Origin: an uncultured Opitutales bacterium
Lineage (GTDB): Bacteria > Verrucomicrobiota > Verrucomicrobiia > Opitutales > Intestinicryptomonadaceae
NCBI GenBank assembly: GCA_934660865.1
Contig: CAKUIA010000008.1
Location: 68,359 to 100,358, forward strand
Length of the DNA: 32,000 nt
Reading direction: 5' to 3'
Shown: piece after piece, positions 22,411-32,000 of the stretch
Layout of the letters: each line of letters opens with the position of its first letter
Position numbering within the stretch: the first letter of the stretch is position 1
The notes under the pieces: model-generated
Databases searched by the model: none
Told to the model about the DNA's origin: nothing
The model's input: the letters and a program-made list of their open reading frames with translations, nothing else
Translations under genes and position numbers: made by a program

Positions 22411-22959
22411 CTATCGGTTTTCGTTTTTTTGCAGCTGGGTACTTTGCAGAATTTGCAACTCGGTTTCTTTTATCCTTTTGCCATACCGCTCTTTTACAAC
22501 GGCTATATCTTTTGCCTGTAGCAAAATTTCAGAAAACTGCTCGTTTAAATGCGCATCTTTCCTGATTGCATCTTCAATAAATATCAACGCGTCTAAAAAA
22601 TTTTTGTGGCGTTTATATTTTAATATATACTGCAAATCTACTGCGCAAAAAATTCTGTCTATCTGCCAATCGTATGTGTTGCCGGGCCACGCCAAATAAT
22701 GCGCAAAAATAAAAGCCTTTGCAAATTGCAGTGGGTCGCTAAAACGCGAAAGACGTTTTTGCATATCGTAGTTGTATGTATATTTGCGTTCAGCTTCGTT
22801 GTATTGCGAAGTTTTTGCCAAATCCAGCGAATTGATTTCAAGCAAAAACGAAATAATTTCGGCATTAGCGGCCTGCTTTTTGCGGCTGTCTTCCAAATCG
22901 GCAAAAGCAAGAGGCTGCAAAACAAGCAACCATAGCGAAAATATGCAACGAAATTTCAT
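22411..22959 (-). CDS. Hypothetical secreted protein (orphan) in an AT-rich islet.
   Basis: Starting at ATG 22959 gives a classical signal peptide, MKFRCIFSLWLLVLQPLAFA|DLED. I recognised no family. Hand GC counts on lines 22441, 22501, 22561 and 22621 give 38, 37, 30 and 33%. Confidence 0.55.
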   Translation of the reverse strand: MKFRCIFSLWLLVLQPLAFADLEDSRKKQAANAEIISFLLEINSLDLAKTSQYNEAERKYTYNYDMQKRLSRFSDPLQFAKAFIFAHYLAWPGNTYDWQIDRIFCAVDLQYILKYKRHKNFLDALIFIEDAIRKDAHLNEQFSEILLQAKDIAVVKERYGKRIKETELQILQSTQLQKNENR

Positions 22960-23074
22960 GCCGCAAATTATTGTAGCAAACACTATATATTTCAAGGGCA
23001 AAAATTTTCGGCGGGCTTTAAGGCTTGCATATGTGCATTAAAAACAAACACTGTTTTGCAAATTACAAAAATTT

Positions 23075-24553: not shown

Positions 24554-24586
24554 CAAAAAAACCGGACAAAAACGGGCGCAAAAAAA

Positions 24587-24610
24587 GTTCCGTATCTTGC
24601 GATACGGAAC
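24587..24610 (-). terminator. Hairpin terminator closing the nine-gene envelope operon.
   Basis: GTTCCGTATC / GATACGGAAC is a perfect 10-bp stem with a TTGC loop, 21 nt after the stop at 24632. A 7-nt A-run on the plus strand (24580..24586) becomes a U-run after the hairpin on the minus-strand transcript. Confidence 0.6.
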
Positions 24611-24631
24611 TTACCGTTTTACTTTTACCGC

Positions 24632-24856
24632 CTATTGCTGAACCCTTTTTGCCTGCGCGTCGTATAAAAACGCGGGCTCGCTTGTAACGGTTTTTTCGTG
24701 GGGGTTTTGCTCGCCGTCCCATGTACGCACCTGCGTTTTGGCGCTTACTCCGGGGGTGAAAAACTCCGAAAAGGCGTCCCAGCTAAACCCCGCGCTTTCG
24801 CACGAAGTCAGCAAGGCCGCAACCGCGGGCAACAATGCAAATACAAGATATTTCAT
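24632..24856 (-). CDS. Small lipoprotein (74 aa), last gene of the envelope operon.
   Basis: Lipobox AALLTSC. The start overlaps the upstream stop by 1 nt (TAATG). I recognised no family. Confidence 0.5.
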   Translation of the reverse strand: MKYLVFALLPAVAALLTSCESAGFSWDAFSEFFTPGVSAKTQVRTWDGEQNPHEKTVTSEPAFLYDAQAKRVQQ

Positions 24857-25422
24857 TAAAACCCGAACGTGCTTCTATCCGACTGCTTCGAGATTTGCTC
24901 TTGGCCAATCCATCGAGAAGTGCCGTTCATATTAAGTTCGAGAGTGAACGTATAGGTAACTTCCCTCTTGTCGGAATTGATTTCCCTGTCTTCGGAAATC
25001 GACCCCGTAAGGGTGATTTTCGCCATACCGATTTTCTTGCCCGACATTTCGGCCTCGTACTGCAAAAGCTCCTGCGTTGCCTTGTCGTCTTTAATTACTA
25101 TAACCTTGCCGGAATTTGTAAGGTCCATAATAATCTTGTTGGTCAGCATGCCCGTGTCGATAACCTCCGAAGTCTTGTTCTTTACGTTGCTAACAAGCAT
25201 TTTTATGGGCTGTTTAAGCTTTAAATTGTCCAAAACGCCCGAAGCAAGCATATCGGTTGTCAGCTTTGCCGCGGCATTGTTCCAGTCGGCAATGTTTATT
25301 TTTCTGGTAGAGACGATGGAATTTGCGCCGCCCGCCTGAATGTACGAAGCGTTATTGCTTGCACACCCCGAAACTATTGCGGCCAATGCCACCAAACATA
25401 GCGATATCGATTTAACATTCAT
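24856..25422 (-). CDS. LpoB/YcfM-family (COG3417-type, TolB-N-like fold) outer-membrane lipoprotein.
   Basis: Lipobox AAIVSGC. KMLVSNVKNKTSEVIDTGMLTNKIIMDLTNSGKV and KITLTGSI...YTFTLELNMNGTSRWIGQEQISKQ follow the LpoB family pattern as I recall it from E. coli LpoB (xNKT...L...I...L.NSGKF). Confidence 0.6.
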   Translation of the reverse strand: MNVKSISLCLVALAAIVSGCASNNASYIQAGGANSIVSTRKINIADWNNAAAKLTTDMLASGVLDNLKLKQPIKMLVSNVKNKTSEVIDTGMLTNKIIMDLTNSGKVIVIKDDKATQELLQYEAEMSGKKIGMAKITLTGSISEDREINSDKREVTYTFTLELNMNGTSRWIGQEQISKQSDRSTFGF

Positions 25423-25427
25423 ATTCT

Positions 25428-25841
25428 CTAATCTCGTTTATTGGGTAATAATTTAAGTGTAAAGTCGCACGCATTTGCATTCGGGGCAACGGCCGACACC
25501 ATGCCCGATTCGCCGCCCTCCAAAACCAGCGTTCTCCATGCCGCAGTTGCCGACGGCACTTCCATTCCGTTTTTGTCTATCCAGGTAAACTTGTAGTTTA
25601 TCGAGCGCAACGCCGATGTCGAATTTACAATTCTGGCCTGAATCATAAGCAAATTTCCCCTCTTTGTTTCGTTTACCGAGGCAACATAGGCGTAGTCGTT
25701 TAGGGTGCTGTCGGTAATAACGCGCTTGTCGTTAACCAAAGTAGGCGAGGATTGCGGATTGGCACGCTCAACGGTGTTAACCGTTGAACATGCCGACGTT
25801 AAAAACAATGCTGCAAGCAATGCAAATAATGCGATTTTCAT
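25428..25841 (-). CDS. YcfL-like (DUF1425-type) lipoprotein.
   Basis: Lipobox LFLTSAC and 137 aa. INYKFTWIDKNGMEV...W..L.L.GGES resembles the YcfL pattern (YRFYWYDxxGLEM). Its position next to an LpoB-like gene matches the E. coli ycfL-lpoB arrangement. Confidence 0.55.
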   Translation of the reverse strand: MKIALFALLAALFLTSACSTVNTVERANPQSSPTLVNDKRVITDSTLNDYAYVASVNETKRGNLLMIQARIVNSTSALRSINYKFTWIDKNGMEVPSATAAWRTLVLEGGESGMVSAVAPNANACDFTLKLLPNKRD

Positions 25842-25851
25842 TTATAGTCGA

Positions 25852-27276
25852 CTATTTTTTCGGATTAAAATCCATAACCTTTACGAGATTCGGGCCCGTC
25901 TGGGACATGGATTTTACGTAAACGATGTTTATACCCTCCTTATTGACCGAAATGGGGGTGCTGTCAACTACAATATTTCCGTCGGCGGGAGTGGCAACCT
26001 TTGCAATTTTTATTTGTTTGGGAAGTGTTGTCCATGTCCTTAGGTCGGCGTCGTTTGTCAATGCCTGGAAGGCGGTTCCCGCAATATTTACAAAAACTCC
26101 GTAGTCGCCTGCGGCCTTGGCTGCAAAATATTGGGCCGTTGCCTTTGCCGCCGAGCTAAGCAGCGTTTTTGTGATTACCGTCGGAAGTTCGATATAAAAT
26201 TCCTCCTCTATAATGTCGTCCATATTCGCTACGGTGTCGAATGTCAGCAATTTGCCGTCGGCAACAACGTCGATATTGTCCTTAAAGTTGCCCTGCTTTT
26301 CCAGATACGGGAAGTTTACCGACACTTGCGGCAGGTTTTTGTTTATAATCCACAAGGGCAAATCCAAACGGAACTGTCTGCGCAGGGGAGCTACGCCCGT
26401 TTCCAAAACAACGTATGTGTAGTTGCCAAAGCTTTTTCCCTCCTGAACGGCTTGGCCGTCGCTTGCGTCGGAATTTAAAACGCCGGATTTCTTGCCGAGC
26501 ATTTCGGCGCAAATTCTAAACGAGTCGCCCGCCATTTTCCTGTCGTCGTTGTCGCCCGTTGCCATCATGCAAACGCCGTAAAGCCAGTATCCGAACGGAT
26601 TTGCATATATGCTGGCGGCCTGTTGAAGCGCGGCGTTGGGGTCTGCCTTATACTTGTCGCCGTAGTACTTCGACATAAGGCCCGAAGTATTCGAATCGGT
26701 CAACAGTTTGCTTACGTCGTAGTTGGCGTTCTTGTTCTTTTTCTTTGCGTCGTCAATGGCCTTCGCTTCGTCTTCTATTCTTTTTTGGTTTACGGCTTTC
26801 GCTTCGTCTTGGGCCTGTTGCAAGCGCTTAAGCTCCACTTTTGCCCTGTCGAAATCCTTTGTGTCGATATAGTTTAGCGACTGGTAAATAGACAGCATAA
26901 CCTTGTCGTAGTTATACCCCTTATAGGCTATGTACGACTGGTTTGTAAGGAACGCCGCGGTTTCTTCGCCCAGCTTTACCTTTGCCTCTTCGTCGTACTT
27001 CTTTATTTTTTCGTACGCGCCGTCCAAAGCCTGCATGCTTGTTTTTATGTCTCCGTTTGCGCGGCTAACCGAGCCTTGTTCGAGCAGCCATATAACCTCG
27101 TCGCCCGAGTCTTTTTTATCGGGAACAATCTCGTTTATAAGCGTTTCGGCCTGTGCCGTATTGCCGGCAACCCATGCTTTTCTAACGTCTTCGGTTTCGC
27201 TTCTGTGTGTAGCGCAGCCAACCATGCCTATAGACACAAGCGCAAACGCCAGTTGTATTATGTTCTGTTTTTTCAT
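25852..27276 (-). CDS. Large lipoprotein (474 aa), COG3014-like, with a TPR-like N-terminal half.
   Basis: Lipobox SIGMVGC. Helical-repeat N-half (AWVAGNTAQAETLINEI..., YDKVMLSIYQSLNYIDTKDFDRAKVELKR). C-terminal DADLRTWTTLPKQI. The family call rests on my recollection that COG3014 proteins co-occur with YcfL and LpoB-like genes. The CDS itself is solid. Confidence 0.55.
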   Translation of the reverse strand: MKKQNIIQLAFALVSIGMVGCATHRSETEDVRKAWVAGNTAQAETLINEIVPDKKDSGDEVIWLLEQGSVSRANGDIKTSMQALDGAYEKIKKYDEEAKVKLGEETAAFLTNQSYIAYKGYNYDKVMLSIYQSLNYIDTKDFDRAKVELKRLQQAQDEAKAVNQKRIEDEAKAIDDAKKKNKNANYDVSKLLTDSNTSGLMSKYYGDKYKADPNAALQQAASIYANPFGYWLYGVCMMATGDNDDRKMAGDSFRICAEMLGKKSGVLNSDASDGQAVQEGKSFGNYTYVVLETGVAPLRRQFRLDLPLWIINKNLPQVSVNFPYLEKQGNFKDNIDVVADGKLLTFDTVANMDDIIEEEFYIELPTVITKTLLSSAAKATAQYFAAKAAGDYGVFVNIAGTAFQALTNDADLRTWTTLPKQIKIAKVATPADGNIVVDSTPISVNKEGINIVYVKSMSQTGPNLVKVMDFNPKK

Positions 27277-27319
27277 ATCTGATTTTTTGTTGTATATAGT
27301 ATATATGGAGTTGTGTAAA

Positions 27320-28258
27320 TTATAGTTCTTCGTCTTTGTCGGAGGCCGAAGCCGCGGGTTCGGCGCTTTTTTTCGGGCGCAATATCTGCCCTTTTTCTAT
27401 GCCGTTGTCGGCGCCGACAACCGTGCCCTTCGAAAATTTTGGCAAAACCGAAGTTACCCTTATTTCGCCTATCAAAATTTCCTCCGCGCCCAAATCCTCG
27501 CCCGTGTCGGGGTCTACCATAGATTCTCCCACGGCGAAAACTTCGTAGGTGTCGCCCACTTTAACGCCCGTGTCTTTTGCGCGGTTAAATGTTACAACCT
27601 TGCCGGATTTGCCTATTACTTTGGCGGGATATATTATGTCGGATATCCTGAAGGCTATGTCGCGGCACATAGTTCTTGCCAAAGCGGCTATTGCGGAATC
27701 GGTCAAATCGCCGCCGCTTATGTTGGCGTCGGCGTCGCGGTCGGCATGGGCTTCGTTCGATATTACAAAATTTGCCGACTCTTTTATACTGCCCGTTGTC
27801 GCGTCTATAAGGTTTGCAACTGCGCCGTACCTTATAATTCTGGTTTGCGTGCTTTTGTTTAGCGAGGCGAACTCGCGCTTGCGTATAAAGTCTTGGTAGT
27901 CGTCTACAAAAACCGTAACTATGTATTTTGCGCCCTTAAGCTTGCCGATTTTTGGTGCCGTTGCCTTGTCAACATTTCCCGATTCGCCGAACTGCTGTTC
28001 GCTTATTACGGCGTCTATGTCGGAGCGTGAAATTACGTCGAATTTTCTGGTAGCCAAAAACGCCGACGACAAATTCGCGTTCATCGATTCGAGTATTCTG
28101 TCTAAAGATTCTGTTCCCGAACGCGACTTAAGCGACTTTTTAAGCGCGTTTGTGGCAACTACCTTTGTTATGGCTATGCTCGCCTTTTCGGCTTTGGGAG
28201 CGGCTATGCCCGCGGCGGCCGCGGCGAGCGAAAGCATTAGTATAAGTATCTTTTTCAT
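27320..28258 (-). CDS. CsgG/HfaB-family-like periplasmic/outer-membrane protein with a C-terminal FlgT_C-like beta-barrel module (tentative).
   Basis: Signal peptide MKKILILMLSLAAAAAGIAA, with no lipobox Cys. SIAITKV..., FLATRKFDVISRSDIDAVISEQQF and GKLKGAKYIVTVFV follow the CsgG-family pattern (F.V.ER..L..L..E). C-terminus: AKVIGKSGKVVTFNRAKDTGVKVGDTYEVF...DPDTGEDLG...GEIRVTSV. Confidence 0.6.
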   Translation of the reverse strand: MKKILILMLSLAAAAAGIAAPKAEKASIAITKVVATNALKKSLKSRSGTESLDRILESMNANLSSAFLATRKFDVISRSDIDAVISEQQFGESGNVDKATAPKIGKLKGAKYIVTVFVDDYQDFIRKREFASLNKSTQTRIIRYGAVANLIDATTGSIKESANFVISNEAHADRDADANISGGDLTDSAIAALARTMCRDIAFRISDIIYPAKVIGKSGKVVTFNRAKDTGVKVGDTYEVFAVGESMVDPDTGEDLGAEEILIGEIRVTSVLPKFSKGTVVGADNGIEKGQILRPKKSAEPAASASDKDEEL

Positions 28259-28262
28259 ATCG

Positions 28263-29708
28263 TTAGGGAATTTTAACTTTTGCGTCTATCTTAAAGCCCG
28301 ACTTTTTCAGGGCTTCGAAAATGCCCTTTGCCTTTAGGTATTCGGCCTGCGACAATATAATCTTGGCGGTGGAATTCGCCTGCGACTCTTCCACATAAGC
28401 GTCCGTCATTTTTTTGCTGTTCGCAGTTTCCGCGTCCATTGCGCGTATTTGCGCCTGCGCAATTTTCGCGTCGGTTTTGGTTTGCGAATTTATCCTTGCA
28501 ACGTCGGCTGCGGCGTAATTTTTGTCTATTTCCATTTGCGCCTGCCTTTGGGCTATGTCTACTTTTGCGTTGTCGATTTTAATGTCTACGTCGGCCGACT
28601 CGCTTCTGGCCAAAGTGCGGCGCCTTTCAAGCTCGATTTCGCGGATTTTGTCTTTATTTGCGCTATCTTTATACTTTTCTACAGTAGCCTGCATCCATTC
28701 CATATCCTTTTTTAGGCGCTCTTTTGCCGCGGCGGTTAATATGCCCTCGTAGGTGTGCCTGTCTTGGCTTGCAATGCCCGTTACGTTTATGGCTACGTCT
28801 ATGGGCTCAAGGTCTTTGTGCGAAATTCTCAGATGGTGCGGGCCTCTTTTAAGCTTTATGGGGGTGTTTGTGTTTATCGTGTGGCTAATGCCGTCTATTT
28901 CGGCGTTTATGGTCATCAGTTCAAGAGGAACCATAGATTCCTCTATCGCATACGAGCCGTCGTCCTCCTGGAAAACCTGCGGGAAACGCATTGCCGTTAC
29001 CTTTACGGAAATATACACATCGAAATTGTTGCCTATTTTGGCTATTATCTTTTTGTTGTTTAAGTCGCCCGCCAAGGCCTGCGCCATTTGCGTTGCGCAG
29101 TCTTGCATAAGCTCGTTAAAAAATTCCTCGTCTACCTCTACATTCATATTCTCGGTATTTCTTATAAGCTTTTCGCTTTTTACCGATTTGCCCGAAGTAC
29201 CCACGCCCATGCCGCTTTCGCACAGGTTGTAGTTGCAGCGCATTGTAAATATGTTGTTGACGGTTTTTACCCCGTACAAATTCGAAGTGATTCTTTTTTC
29301 GGACACGCTGGCAATAGACGCCACCAAAATATAGTCGGCGCCTACCATTTCGGCCAAATTTATGCCCGATATGTTTTCGAAAAGCTCCTGGTCGAATTTT
29401 TTGTTTGTAGAGATGTCCCTTTTAAGGGTTTCGGCAACGTTTCTGTATTTTGCGTTGTCGTCGTTTAAATAGGAATTTAGGTTGCGCAACACAAGGTCCA
29501 TGCTAATTACGCCAAAACCGGAATTGTTGATGTCTGCCGCCAGATAGTTTTCCAGGTTTTTTTTGTTTGCGTCCAAAAACTTTACGTATTTTGCGCTGTC
29601 GTTCCTAACTAAAATGGCAACCGTTTTTTTGGGCGCTTGTGCAAACGCGGCGGCGCCAAGCAACAACGCAAGCGCAGCCGCAACCATAAATTTTATATAC
29701 GTTTTCAT
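28263..29708 (-). CDS. Secreted multidomain protein with a CsgG/TolB-N-like N-domain, a PEGA-like beta-sandwich and a long C-terminal alpha-helical (coiled-coil-like) region.
   Basis: Signal peptide ...LLGAAAFAQA. KKTVAILVRN...INNSGFGVISMDLVLRNL...MVGADYILVASI follows the same fold pattern as the neighbouring gene. INAEIDGISHTINTNTPIKLKRGPHHLRISHKDLEPIDVAINV is PEGA-like. The last ~130 aa are A/Q/K/E/D-rich heptad-like sequence. Confidence 0.55.
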   Translation of the reverse strand: MKTYIKFMVAAALALLLGAAAFAQAPKKTVAILVRNDSAKYVKFLDANKKNLENYLAADINNSGFGVISMDLVLRNLNSYLNDDNAKYRNVAETLKRDISTNKKFDQELFENISGINLAEMVGADYILVASIASVSEKRITSNLYGVKTVNNIFTMRCNYNLCESGMGVGTSGKSVKSEKLIRNTENMNVEVDEEFFNELMQDCATQMAQALAGDLNNKKIIAKIGNNFDVYISVKVTAMRFPQVFQEDDGSYAIEESMVPLELMTINAEIDGISHTINTNTPIKLKRGPHHLRISHKDLEPIDVAINVTGIASQDRHTYEGILTAAAKERLKKDMEWMQATVEKYKDSANKDKIREIELERRRTLARSESADVDIKIDNAKVDIAQRQAQMEIDKNYAAADVARINSQTKTDAKIAQAQIRAMDAETANSKKMTDAYVEESQANSTAKIILSQAEYLKAKGIFEALKKSGFKIDAKVKIP

Positions 29709-29710
29709 AA

Positions 29711-30538
29711 TTATCTTATTTCCAATAACGAGCTTTTTATTTTGTTTGCTTCATTAAAAAGGTTCATTACCGCTTTCGTGTTCTTTTCGGAATACGGCAT
29801 AAGCGCAATCTTTTGCTGTATTTCCAGTATTTTGTTTATGCTGTTGAAATTTTCGACCGCGTTTTTCGCCGTATTAAGCAAAACTTTCGTGTCCGAAAGG
29901 GTAAGCTTTTCGTCCATATTGTATTTGTGCCTTAGCTTCGATTCGTCGAACTTGCCCATTGCCTCGCAGTATAATTTCTTGAAATCTTGAACCGACTTGC
30001 CGACATTCGAAGAATCCATTTCGTCTATTTTCTCCAGCAGGGCGTTTTGGTAGCCGTTTATAGACGAAACAAGCTCGCTTTTGCACTCGCTAAAATGGCA
30101 GTCTTTGGCCGCGGCATTGCCCGCCGCGCCGCCTTCGGCTTTCGATTTTTTTGCGTCGGCAAGCTTTTTATCGTCTACCTTTTGAATCGAAACCGAATCT
30201 TTTTGAACTTTGTATGTATAAACTATCTCGTCGTTTTTTTTGCCCTGCGTGCGCCCCAGCATAACCCTGCCCGAGTACACAACGGCATAGCCCTTTTGCA
30301 CATTCAAATGCTTTGCCAGCGTTTTGTTCAATATAATCTCGGAATAGGCATAGTCGGCCTGAATATTGCGGGATTCCGAATAGGCGGTTGTCTTTTTTAG
30401 GGCAATTTTCGCAATATAGGCTTGTCCGTCGTCAACAAGCTCTACATTACACTCTACCGGCATACGAAAGGAATAATCTTTTGCATACGCTTGTATGCAA
30501 AAGATTGAGCATATAACGAATATGAAAATTCCCTTCAT
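29711..30538 (-). CDS. Secreted hypothetical protein (275 aa) with a small alpha/beta N-domain, a K/A/G-rich linker and a helical C-domain.
   Basis: Signal peptide MKGIFIFVICSIFCIQAYA|KD. The stop lies 2 nt from the start of the next gene. I recognised no family. Confidence 0.6.
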   Translation of the reverse strand: MKGIFIFVICSIFCIQAYAKDYSFRMPVECNVELVDDGQAYIAKIALKKTTAYSESRNIQADYAYSEIILNKTLAKHLNVQKGYAVVYSGRVMLGRTQGKKNDEIVYTYKVQKDSVSIQKVDDKKLADAKKSKAEGGAAGNAAAKDCHFSECKSELVSSINGYQNALLEKIDEMDSSNVGKSVQDFKKLYCEAMGKFDESKLRHKYNMDEKLTLSDTKVLLNTAKNAVENFNSINKILEIQQKIALMPYSEKNTKAVMNLFNEANKIKSSLLEIR

Positions 30539-30571
30539 TACGCTGGTAAGCGTGCGTATTTTTAGTGCCGA

Positions 30572-31312
30572 TTACAATCCGGCGGGCAAAACGATTTTCT
30601 GCTTGGGGTTGCCCTTTACCTCTTCGAACTTGCCCGTTTTTGGGGCGGGAAGCGACGAAGCGGCAGCTTCTGCGGCATTGGCCTGCGACGATTGCATATC
30701 GCCCGTTGCCGACGCCCTTTTTGCGTCTGCATAATCCGTCAGGCTCTGTTTTGCGGTTTCGGCCGAAATTTTAGAAACTTCCTTAAGCTGTTTTGTAATG
30801 TTTCTATTCCATACAAACACCGCAACATACGAGCCGTTGCGGTTCGGGTCTACCGCCAACTGCATAAGCCCCGCCTGCGCCGACTTTGTTACGCTGTCCA
30901 TAACTTCGCTAACCTGGCTTGTCATTGTCGACTGCGTAGAACCGCTGCCCTGGTTGTCGCCTGCGGCTTCGCCCTTTACGGTTACATTCATTTCTCCGTT
31001 TGCCGACTGTTTTGCCGTAAACATGCTGTTTAGGGTTTTAGAAAGCGTATTTTCCGCGTCCAATCTCGACTGCGTTGCGGCCATTTTCTTTGCATACGCC
31101 TGAGGCAATGCCTTGTTTAGGGGGGCTACCCCTACAATAAACAGGCTTTTCAACGAGCCGTCTTCGTCCAAAGTCCACGACGCAGCACCCGATTCTCCGC
31201 TTGCAAGCAAATTTTCCACAATCTTTTCCTGCGACGAGCCCGTCGCGTTATTGCCCTGCGCAAACGGTACAATCGAAGACAGCGCCAACAATATTCCGAT
31301 GATTTTTTTCAT
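30572..31312 (-). CDS. Secreted protein (246 aa), long paralog of 31349..31879. Tentatively LPP20/FlgP-like fold, with a G/S/T/Q/N-rich insert and a C-terminal extension.
   Basis: Signal peptide MKKIIGILLALSSIVPFAQG. SD AAGGAA lies upstream. Shared blocks with the upstream gene are listed in the findings. Confidence 0.6.
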   Translation of the reverse strand: MKKIIGILLALSSIVPFAQGNNATGSSQEKIVENLLASGESGAASWTLDEDGSLKSLFIVGVAPLNKALPQAYAKKMAATQSRLDAENTLSKTLNSMFTAKQSANGEMNVTVKGEAAGDNQGSGSTQSTMTSQVSEVMDSVTKSAQAGLMQLAVDPNRNGSYVAVFVWNRNITKQLKEVSKISAETAKQSLTDYADAKRASATGDMQSSQANAAEAAASSLPAPKTGKFEEVKGNPKQKIVLPAGL

Positions 31313-31348
31313 AGAGTTTCCTTTTATATTTTTGTTTTTGGTAAAATT

Positions 31349-31879
31349 TTATTCCTTTATAGTTTCGTTGTACGTTTTTTTCATCGAAGACGAAACATTC
31401 CTTAAAGCCGCATTTGCGGTGTTGTTCCATGCGTAAACTGCAACGTAGCTGCCGTCCCTGTCGGGTATTGAGGCAATATTCATCACGCCCGAAATGCTGC
31501 CTTTCGACTGCGAGGCAATATTTTCCGAATATTTTGTTTCAAATTCGGCTTGCGAGACGCTGTCTAAAGCTTTGCTACCCATCGTCGAAGACGACGCCAC
31601 TTTGCTGTTTAGAAATTTAACCAAAGTCTGCTCGGCTTGAACCTGCGCTATTTTCGCCGCAATCTTCTGCGCCCTGGCCTTTCTGTAGTTCTGGCTTAGG
31701 GGAACAACGCTTGTTATGTATATTGTTTTTATTGTCGTGTTGTCGCGCTCGTACACCAACATTATCTGCCCGTGGTAGCCGGAATCTAGCAGGGCCGAAA
31801 CAATTTCCTCGCTGCTGGGCTGCGCATAAACAACCAGCGACAGGAACGTAAATATAATGGCAATTAAAACCCTTTTCAT
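31349..31879 (-). CDS. Secreted protein (176 aa), short paralog of 30572..31312 and first gene of the envelope operon visible in the window.
   Basis: Signal peptide MKRVLIAIIFTFLSLVVYA|QP. Blocks EEIVSALLDSG, IKTIYITSVVPL, AEQTLVKFLNS and DRDGSYVAVYAWN match the downstream paralog. Confidence 0.6.
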   Translation of the reverse strand: MKRVLIAIIFTFLSLVVYAQPSSEEIVSALLDSGYHGQIMLVYERDNTTIKTIYITSVVPLSQNYRKARAQKIAAKIAQVQAEQTLVKFLNSKVASSSTMGSKALDSVSQAEFETKYSENIASQSKGSISGVMNIASIPDRDGSYVAVYAWNNTANAALRNVSSSMKKTYNETIKE

Positions 31880-31923: not shown

Positions 31924-32000
31924 TGTATGTATGTATGTATGTATGTATGTATGTATGTATGTATGTATGTATGTATGTATGTATGTATGTATGTATGTAT
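31924..32000. repeat. (TGTA)n tetranucleotide microsatellite, 19 complete units plus 1 nt, truncated by the window edge.
   Basis: Direct reading shows perfect TGTA periodicity from 31924 to 32000 with no interruption. It begins 44 nt upstream of ATG 31879 of the minus-strand operon. Confidence 0.97.

Follow-up and report, generated by a model that had tools for sequence, protein, structure and literature searches.

What is the use of nine adjacent genes whose products are all sent out of the cytoplasm? The question is raised by a stretch of 32,000 nucleotides (nt) from an uncultured gut bacterium of the Opitutales, close to Intestinicryptomonas (GenBank assembly GCA_934660865.1, contig CAKUIA010000008.1, positions 68,359 to 100,358; here the window), in which nine consecutive open reading frames (ORFs) on the minus strand, named g1 to g9 in the direction of transcription, occupy positions 24632 to 31879. 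The original prediction for this DNA had read them as an envelope operon coding for a scaffold or a pore. We found an operon composed of a five-gene core that spans two phyla (g4 to g8) and of clade-specific additions, with every product exported. The core joins a gene pair, g4 and g5, the second of which appears to code for a FlgT-like periplasmic protein, to a trio of lipoprotein genes, g6 to g8, of a type already known from other bacteria. Regarding function, we see about an even chance that the products form a scaffold beneath the outer membrane, one that needs no energy source and takes part in envelope or peptidoglycan upkeep; it would be neither a pore nor a horizontally acquired accessory.

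Organization of the operon

Direct reading of the window confirmed the nine minus-strand ORFs and their spacing, which from g1 to g9 is 36, 33, 2, 4, 43, 10, and 5 nt, followed by a 1-nt TAATG overlap of the g8 stop and the g9 start. The terminator expected 21 nt past the g9 stop was found too, at 24585-24612 on the minus strand, where we measured a stem of 12 pairs that is closed by a GCAA loop and trailed by a T-run (GTTCCGTATC-GCAA-GATACGGAAC); it is the sole convincing terminator in the stretch. To judge from the gene spacing and this lone terminator, the nine genes are predicted to be one transcription unit.

The five signal peptides and four lipoboxes of the original prediction also held. 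Leaders for signal peptidase I begin g1 to g5 (in this order VYA/Q, PFA/Q, AYA/K, AFA/Q, and GIA/A, the slash marking cleavage), while g6 to g9 carry the lipoboxes GMVGC, LTSAC, IVSGC, and LLTSC, respectively. In none of the nine products does any 19-residue window past residue 30 reach transmembrane-level hydrophobicity, and none of them has a Pfam or NCBIfam match to an ATPase or other cytoplasmic family, in agreement with the claim that nothing cytoplasmic, ATP binding, or located in the inner membrane is encoded here.

Composition gave a different picture from the one first drawn, in which sampled lines of the operon had 37 to 45% GC against about 57% for housekeeping lines. The operon has 47.0% GC versus 48.5% for the remainder of the window, and the housekeeping genes for AlaRS, SecA, and IDH have 50 to 51%; only g3, the lowest in the operon at 42.3%, is somewhat low. 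Horizontal acquisition and accessory status, considered on these grounds, were rejected, as the GC content of the operon equals that of the genome background and its core is kept across two phyla.

A tandem (ATAC)n repeat lies 44 nt upstream of the g1 start (31924-32000, at least 19 copies, strand not assigned). Tandem repeat finder counted 19.2 perfect copies, and the repeat runs off the end of the window. It also ends an independent contig, L001, and is absent upstream of the operon of Intestinicryptomonas porci. It may be a phase-variable promoter repeat or an assembly breakpoint.

Conservation and gene neighborhoods

A scan of species-representative genomes for relatives of g5 retrieved at least 543, and the best 80 of these are nearly all labeled as members of the Planctomycetota-Verrucomicrobiota-Chlamydiota (PVC) group (Opitutales, Limisphaerales, Verrucomicrobiales, Brocadiaceae, including Kuenenia, and Phycisphaerae). 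When the nine proteins were mapped onto 85 loci, the order g4-g5-g6-g7-g8 appeared in at least 60 of them, distributed over two phyla, with exceptions that are mostly contig ends, so the co-conservation that a check of neighborhoods was meant to reveal is indeed seen. All nine genes follow one another in the same order in I. porci (Verrucomicrobiota, Opitutales) and in assembly GCA_944389315.1, and the flanks differ among all three genomes. With the full order recurring in two relatives and the core in so many loci, chance falls far short of explaining the genes and their association. The families that recur in the flanks of the 85 loci are glycine-zipper lipoproteins, a GT11 glycosyltransferase, and 6PGD, and the other flanking genes are unrelated housekeeping genes.

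The combination of parts is not confined to PVC bacteria, because an alphaproteobacterial plasmid carries it. Plasmid p1 of Azospirillum sp. TSH100 codes on one strand (E6C72_RS31085-RS31105) for a g6-like protein, a YcfL protein, an LpoB protein, a DUF6844 protein with a distant likeness to g1 and g2, and a g5-like protein. The last aligns with g5 over 237 columns that include its barrel (hhalign, 97.9%, E 3.6e-13), and the DUF6844 protein is a homolog of FTT_1539c (2.6e-24). Unlike in the window, the cluster opens with the trio and closes with the FlgT-like gene, there is no PEGA paralog, and the DUF6844 protein is a product of 448 amino acids (aa) with several domains.

Similar parts also make up a different cluster on a metagenome contig (L088, 3999-4907 and its neighbors), which codes for a FadL/Toluene_X outer membrane protein, an LPP20 lipoprotein, a FlgT_N/CsgG-like protein, a g5-like protein, a FecR-domain protein, and a protein combining CsgG, TPR, and FlgT_C. 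The FlgT-like genes of Cupriavidus and Caballeronia are found in unrelated clusters of hypothetical proteins.

The folds involved (FlgT-like, PEGA, and Lpp20-like) and the trio type of operon are already known, and on present evidence this is not a new kind of machine. For the fixed association of pair and trio, the planctomycete fusion described below, and the nine-gene form, no description was found in the literature searched.

The lipoprotein trio

The identity of the trio is clearest for its last two members. The g7 gene (25428-25841) codes for a lipoprotein of 137 aa that matches Pfam DUF1425 (2e-21, 76.2 bits, with a cut-off of 28.3), and so it is the YcfL-like lipoprotein that had been proposed. 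Among Protein Data Bank (PDB) structures, it matches 3o0l (1e-8) and, at 0.11, the "putative lipoprotein" 4gio, which we take to be Cj0090. The g8 product (24856-25422, 188 aa) is a lipoprotein of the Pfam LpoB family (1.3e-16, 61.2 bits, with a cut-off of 22.3). As a single sequence it found no match in the PDB, while a profile of 20 of its orthologs matches the Escherichia coli LpoB structures 2mii and 4q6z at 4e-7, and its proteobacterial orthologs carry the annotation lpoB.

The first and largest member is g6 (25852-27276, 474 aa). The lipoprotein itself has no Pfam model and its profile has no match in the PDB; the TPR-like character first attributed to it survives as weak TPR matches in a few of its relatives only. 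The family has an invariant C-terminal motif, D..R.W..LPK. Searching with g6 by tblastn, we found a gene of Aeromonas caviae (22.6% identity, 90% coverage, 2e-16) and one on the Azospirillum plasmid (1e-11), each of which sits immediately before a DUF1425/ycfL gene and then an lpoB gene. The g6 family is thereby shown to be homologous to the first gene of these proteobacterial trios, both of which adjoin nonflagellar genes.

This is the arrangement of cj0089-cj0090-cj0091 in Campylobacter jejuni, and g6-g7-g8 belong to the same widespread type of trio, which consists of a large TPR-like, a YcfL/DUF1425, and an LpoB-family lipoprotein. The C. jejuni products, described as membrane associated, have 453, 122, and 207 aa (PMC3100323), sizes similar to those here, and the order of the three lipoprotein genes is the same, with the YcfL/DUF1425 member in the middle and the LpoB-family member last. 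Their Helicobacter pylori homologs are HP0018, HP0444, and HP1457. Unlike in C. jejuni, the trio of the window has the FlgT-like/PEGA pair before it (in this clade also g1 to g3) and a small lipoprotein gene after it.

The Campylobacter and Helicobacter genes have been linked to adhesion, colonization, and vesiculation phenotypes. Adherence and early colonization are impaired in a cj0091 mutant, and Cj0091 fractionates with the outer membrane (PMC3100323). Deletion of hp0018, the homolog of cj0089, leads to chains of outer membrane vesicles and altered cell shape, and tagged HP0018 coprecipitates with MltD and AmiA (PMC11394524).

An LpoB-family member invites the alternative that the operon codes for a set of regulators of peptidoglycan synthesis, in which g8 would act as LpoB does, on a class A penicillin-binding protein, and the other proteins would be adaptors. 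The family assignment of g8 and the match of its profile to LpoB structures speak for this, as do the lpoB annotation of its orthologs and the peptidoglycan hydrolases that coprecipitate with HP0018. However, g8 reaches only 71.2 bits with the NCBIfam LpoB equivalog TIGR02722, whose cut-off is 110.55, and such a set assigns nothing to do to the FlgT-like/PEGA pair or to the Lpp20-like paralogs. It also counts against this alternative that LpoB is not known to pair with PBP1B, by way of the UB2H domain, outside enterobacteria. We consider this alternative unlikely as a full account, and it overlaps with a scaffold engaged in peptidoglycan upkeep rather than excluding one.

The gene pair g4-g5

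The g5 gene (27320-28258) codes for an exported protein of 312 aa whose closest named relative, with 65% identity, is found in I. porci. Its AlphaFold2 model, built on 24 sequences (pLDDT, the predicted local distance difference test score, of 76), gave as best Foldseek match a cryo-electron microscopy entry for the LPHT ring (8z5n, 2.9e-14, 293 columns), along with Vibrio FlgT (3w1e, 1.0e-13, 289 columns). In the predicted model, the body is formed by a TolB-N-like domain and then a C-terminal beta-barrel, in the order seen in FlgT. The long hairpin of the model (aa 112 to 152, DDYQDFIRKREF...TRIIRY) is charged and not amphipathic, and neither a membrane beta-barrel nor an amphipathic membrane hairpin was seen in it. 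The model thus suggests that g5 is a FlgT-like periplasmic protein, with no membrane-spanning barrel evident.

The g4 product (28263-29708, 481 aa) is exported as well and combines a TolB-N/LpoB-like N-terminal domain with a probable PEGA domain and C-terminal helices. Over their N-terminal 200 residues or so, g4 and g5 are paralogous (hhalign, 97.6%, E 3e-12). The PEGA domain that had been proposed is supported at the level of the family, being matched by 13 of the 20 aligned g4-family members (best 5.9e-11) in a region that aligns with the window g4, which itself has no Pfam PEGA match. A few of the 20 also match LptE, FlgT_M, CsgG, or LpoB. The three TolB-N/CsgG-like modules counted in the original prediction can be located in the N-terminal domains of g4 and g5 and in g8, while the long coiled coil that it had listed among the features of the module (about aa 325 to 460 of g4) turned out to be an insertion limited to the window and I. 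porci.

In five loci of Planctomycetota (L038, L040, L063, L079, and L082), Kuenenia included, one ORF of about 750 to 830 aa fuses a g5-like part (aa ~63 to 352) through a Pro/Ala-rich linker to a g4-like part (aa ~420 to 760). The order of the parts is opposite to the gene order of Verrucomicrobiota. Since the two are fused in these ORFs, the sequences argue for a joint action of g4 and g5.

The resemblance to FlgT brings up an outer ring that would serve a flagellar motor, comparable to an H-ring or basal disk and made of flgO/P/T-like components. FlgT is the best structural match of the g5 model, and g5 shares the two-domain body of the Vibrio FlgT/H-ring structures (3w1e and 8z5n). Lpp20/FlgP-fold proteins, as predicted below for g1 and g2, are encoded alongside; the Lpp20 fold is common to disk-forming FlgP and FlgT (PMC11756786). 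Moreover, HP0018 is limited to Helicobacter species with sheathed flagella (PMC11394524). In spite of these similarities, g5 has no Pfam match to FlgT_N and falls below the threshold for FlgT_C (0.015, 16.1 bits, with a cut-off of 27). The genes scanned in the window are of housekeeping or unrelated kinds, with no flagellar gene among them, and none recurs in the flanks of the 85 loci. The g5 module travels with the YcfL/LpoB trio (the pair alone being found in at least three loci) rather than with flgO and flgP, and the trio also occurs beside the nonflagellar genes of Aeromonas and Azospirillum. Deletion mutants of hp0018 and hp1456 retain normal flagella or motors (PMC11394524, PMC11756786). 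A flagellar role is improbable on this evidence.

A CsgG-type secretion channel in the outer membrane, which with its accessory factors would export some substrate in the manner of curli or holdfast systems, is the reading that the databases encourage. The g5 protein passes the gathering score of Pfam CsgG (3.6e-9, 36.7 bits against 20.8), its I. porci ortholog is named "CsgG/HfaB family protein" by NCBI, and its model shares with CsgG (csgDEFG) and HfaB (hfaABD) the TolB-N-like periplasmic fold (Foldseek with CsgG 4uv3, 3.6e-6, after which come HpaA, GNA1162, and PelC). Nevertheless, the Pfam match covers only positions 30 to 101 of the 210 in the profile, a third of it, while FlgT is matched over the whole protein and surpasses CsgG by eight orders of magnitude. 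Neither g5 (...AAAAGIA/APK) nor the 23 relatives aligned with it (24 family members) have a lipobox cysteine, so it is not a lipoprotein, and its hairpin, as mentioned above, is not of the membrane type. Nor is there a Pfam or NCBIfam match among the nine products to CsgE, CsgF, curlin, or another candidate substrate, and Hfa partners are missing too. A channel of this kind is highly improbable, and the pore or secretion-channel half of the original prediction is not supported. Its statement that the set is no copy of curli, holdfast, or flgOPT systems stands. Curli, holdfast, and Pel systems had been considered as candidates and were rejected because their partner genes are absent, g5 is no lipoprotein, and its model fits FlgT better. 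Accordingly, the "CsgG/HfaB family protein" labels in PVC genomes probably mark FlgT-like periplasmic proteins and not curli-type channels.

Least probable of all is a TsaP-like periplasmic ring that would encircle a secretin, either of type II secretion or of a type IV pilus. The C-terminal barrel of g5 does resemble TsaP repeats by sequence (3jc8, 0.0025), and in I. porci genes for a secretin, T2SSE, and T2SSF precede the operon on its own strand, about 1 kb away (L002, 1-5361). However, this adjacency is not conserved: upstream of the operon, GCA_944389315.1 has genes for an extracytoplasmic function (ECF) sigma factor and for a giant protein of Sel1-like type, and the freshwater loci have xseB. 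In addition, no secretin family recurs in the flanks of the 85 loci, and g5 has no LysM domain.

Lineage-specific genes

Upstream of the core, g1 (31349-31879, 176 aa) and g2 (30572-31312, 246 aa) code for exported paralogs (BLASTP, 34% identity, E 1e-24). When the 85 loci and GCA_944389315.1 are considered, g1 is present only in a contig similar to the window, I. porci, and GCA_944389315.1, and g2 is likewise limited to the closest relatives. The family as a whole is rare, with 7 clusters in 5.8 billion sequences and 54 representatives in 1.84 billion. An AlphaFold2 model of g2, built on 55 sequences (pLDDT of 76), and from which the fold of g1 was deduced, has as best Foldseek match the H. 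pylori protein Lpp20, HP1456 (5ok8, probability 0.99, template modeling score on the target of 0.53, E 0.016), with Tip-alpha near the top and FTT_1539c (4qvr) at rank 9. A first alignment of g1 and g2 found no match in the PDB by sequence. The family profile matches 4qvr at an E value of 0.0057 and, at 0.0014, the equivalent stretch in the DUF6844 protein of Azospirillum. These three weak signals (Lpp20 fold, 4qvr, and DUF6844) agree with one another, and they suggest for both proteins an Lpp20-like fold, with a three-stranded sheet that packs onto helices, after which the g2 model continues as a long helix and then a disordered tail.

The H. pylori Lpp20 operon (HP1454-HP1456-HP1457) likewise codes for an Lpp20-fold protein together with an LpoB-family lipoprotein (PMC11394524, PMC11756786). 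In contrast to H. pylori Lpp20, g1 and g2 are soluble exported proteins, much diverged, with the extra C-terminal helix and tail; the Pfam LPP20 model is matched by just 2 of the 55 relatives of g1 and g2, at 0.0088 or weaker.

The third gene, g3 (29711-30538, 275 aa), codes for an exported orphan with no Pfam or NCBIfam match and with homologs confined to the three closest genomes. It was tried as an LPP20-like protein, and its hhalign comparison with the g1/g2 profile came out empty, so of the two or three LPP20-like modules initially proposed the two in g1 and g2 are kept, at the level of their predicted fold, and the third is not shown. The signal-peptide codons of g3 hold a perfect inverted repeat, with arms of 14 bp around a loop of 4 nt (30475-30506, minus strand, AATCTTTTGCATAC-AAGC-GTATGCAAAAGATT), without a good T-tail.

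In other Verrucomicrobiota, the place that g1 to g3 hold in the window, upstream of g4, is occupied by a small Gly-rich lipoprotein, found in 27 loci (8324-8722 of L003 and 26 others). It has about 130 to 190 aa, a zipper-like glycine stretch, the C-terminal motif DPSYHMVRYWKTETT.DGR.IQVP, and no Pfam match. Ten loci are also flanked by a glycine-zipper protein of about 240 aa. The proteins that fill this slot elsewhere, glycine-zipper lipoproteins, are envelope proteins too. At the other end of the operon, g9 (24632-24856) codes for a small lipoprotein of 74 aa, with homologs that keep the position in seven Opitutales loci and in L094.

A putative scaffold under the outer membrane

The folds of the proteins and the behavior of their relatives suggest that the operon codes for a scaffold, which is the reading that we prefer. 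In such an assembly, the four lipoproteins g6 to g9 would provide the anchor on the periplasmic side of the outer membrane, and the TolB-N-like and Lpp20-like modules would oligomerize into a periplasmic ring or lattice, as do FlgT, FlgP, PelC, and CsgG in its periplasmic part, all of them structural relatives of these modules. Such an assembly would need no energy source and would form no secretion channel. It would stabilize the outer membrane or couple it to peptidoglycan remodeling, a role proposed because of the HP0018 phenotype and the relationship with LpoB.

Several points weigh against this scaffold. Even in Campylobacter and Helicobacter the trio has no agreed function, and Cj0089 was recovered in the inner membrane fraction, not the outer one (PMC3100323). 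The presumed homology of g6 to Cj0089 and HP0018 is indirect, by way of the intermediate genes in Aeromonas and Azospirillum, the order of the genes, and the sizes of the proteins. The g4-g5 pair stands without the trio in at least three loci (L049, L055, and L072); pair and trio are therefore separable and need not be one machine. The Lpp20 match of g2 is weak (E 0.016), and neither g1 nor g2 matches Pfam LPP20. All that speaks for a single transcript is the spacing of the genes and the lone terminator, and the ring is a proposal made by analogy with relatives.

A bolder version can be put forward, although we regard it as rather unlikely. The g4-g8 core, with its Lpp20-like or glycine-zipper additions, would be a stand-alone nonflagellar ring or disk beneath the outer membrane, related in evolution to the H-ring and basal-disk scaffolds of flagella as a sibling, and a principal way for PVC bacteria and some Proteobacteria to tether and organize the outer membrane or to gate peptidoglycan remodeling. 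If true, it would give a structural role to the orphan trio of YcfL, LpoB-like, and Cj0089-like proteins. No link was established with the MUL1 and MUL2 mucin-utilization loci of Akkermansia, for which literature other than the primary paper describes different genes, Amuc_0544 and Amuc_1099-1102.

Whatever its precise role, the trio, present in Proteobacteria and Campylobacterota, now extends to Verrucomicrobiota and Planctomycetota. Its tight link to a FlgT-like/PEGA pair and to proteins of a predicted Lpp20 fold provides concrete partners and a ring or lattice hypothesis that can be tested. As PVC envelopes are poorly understood, genetics and cryo-electron tomography could reasonably be directed at a module that two phyla share.

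Other features of the window

Between secA and a sodium:solute symporter gene, the minus strand carries an ORF of 196 aa (22411-23001) with a hydrophobic N terminus and no Pfam match. Near the other end of the window, an apparent minus-strand coding region contains a perfect tandem duplication of 180 bp, or 60 codons (639-1007, 2.0 copies, 100% identity), which may be a real in-frame duplication or an assembly artifact.

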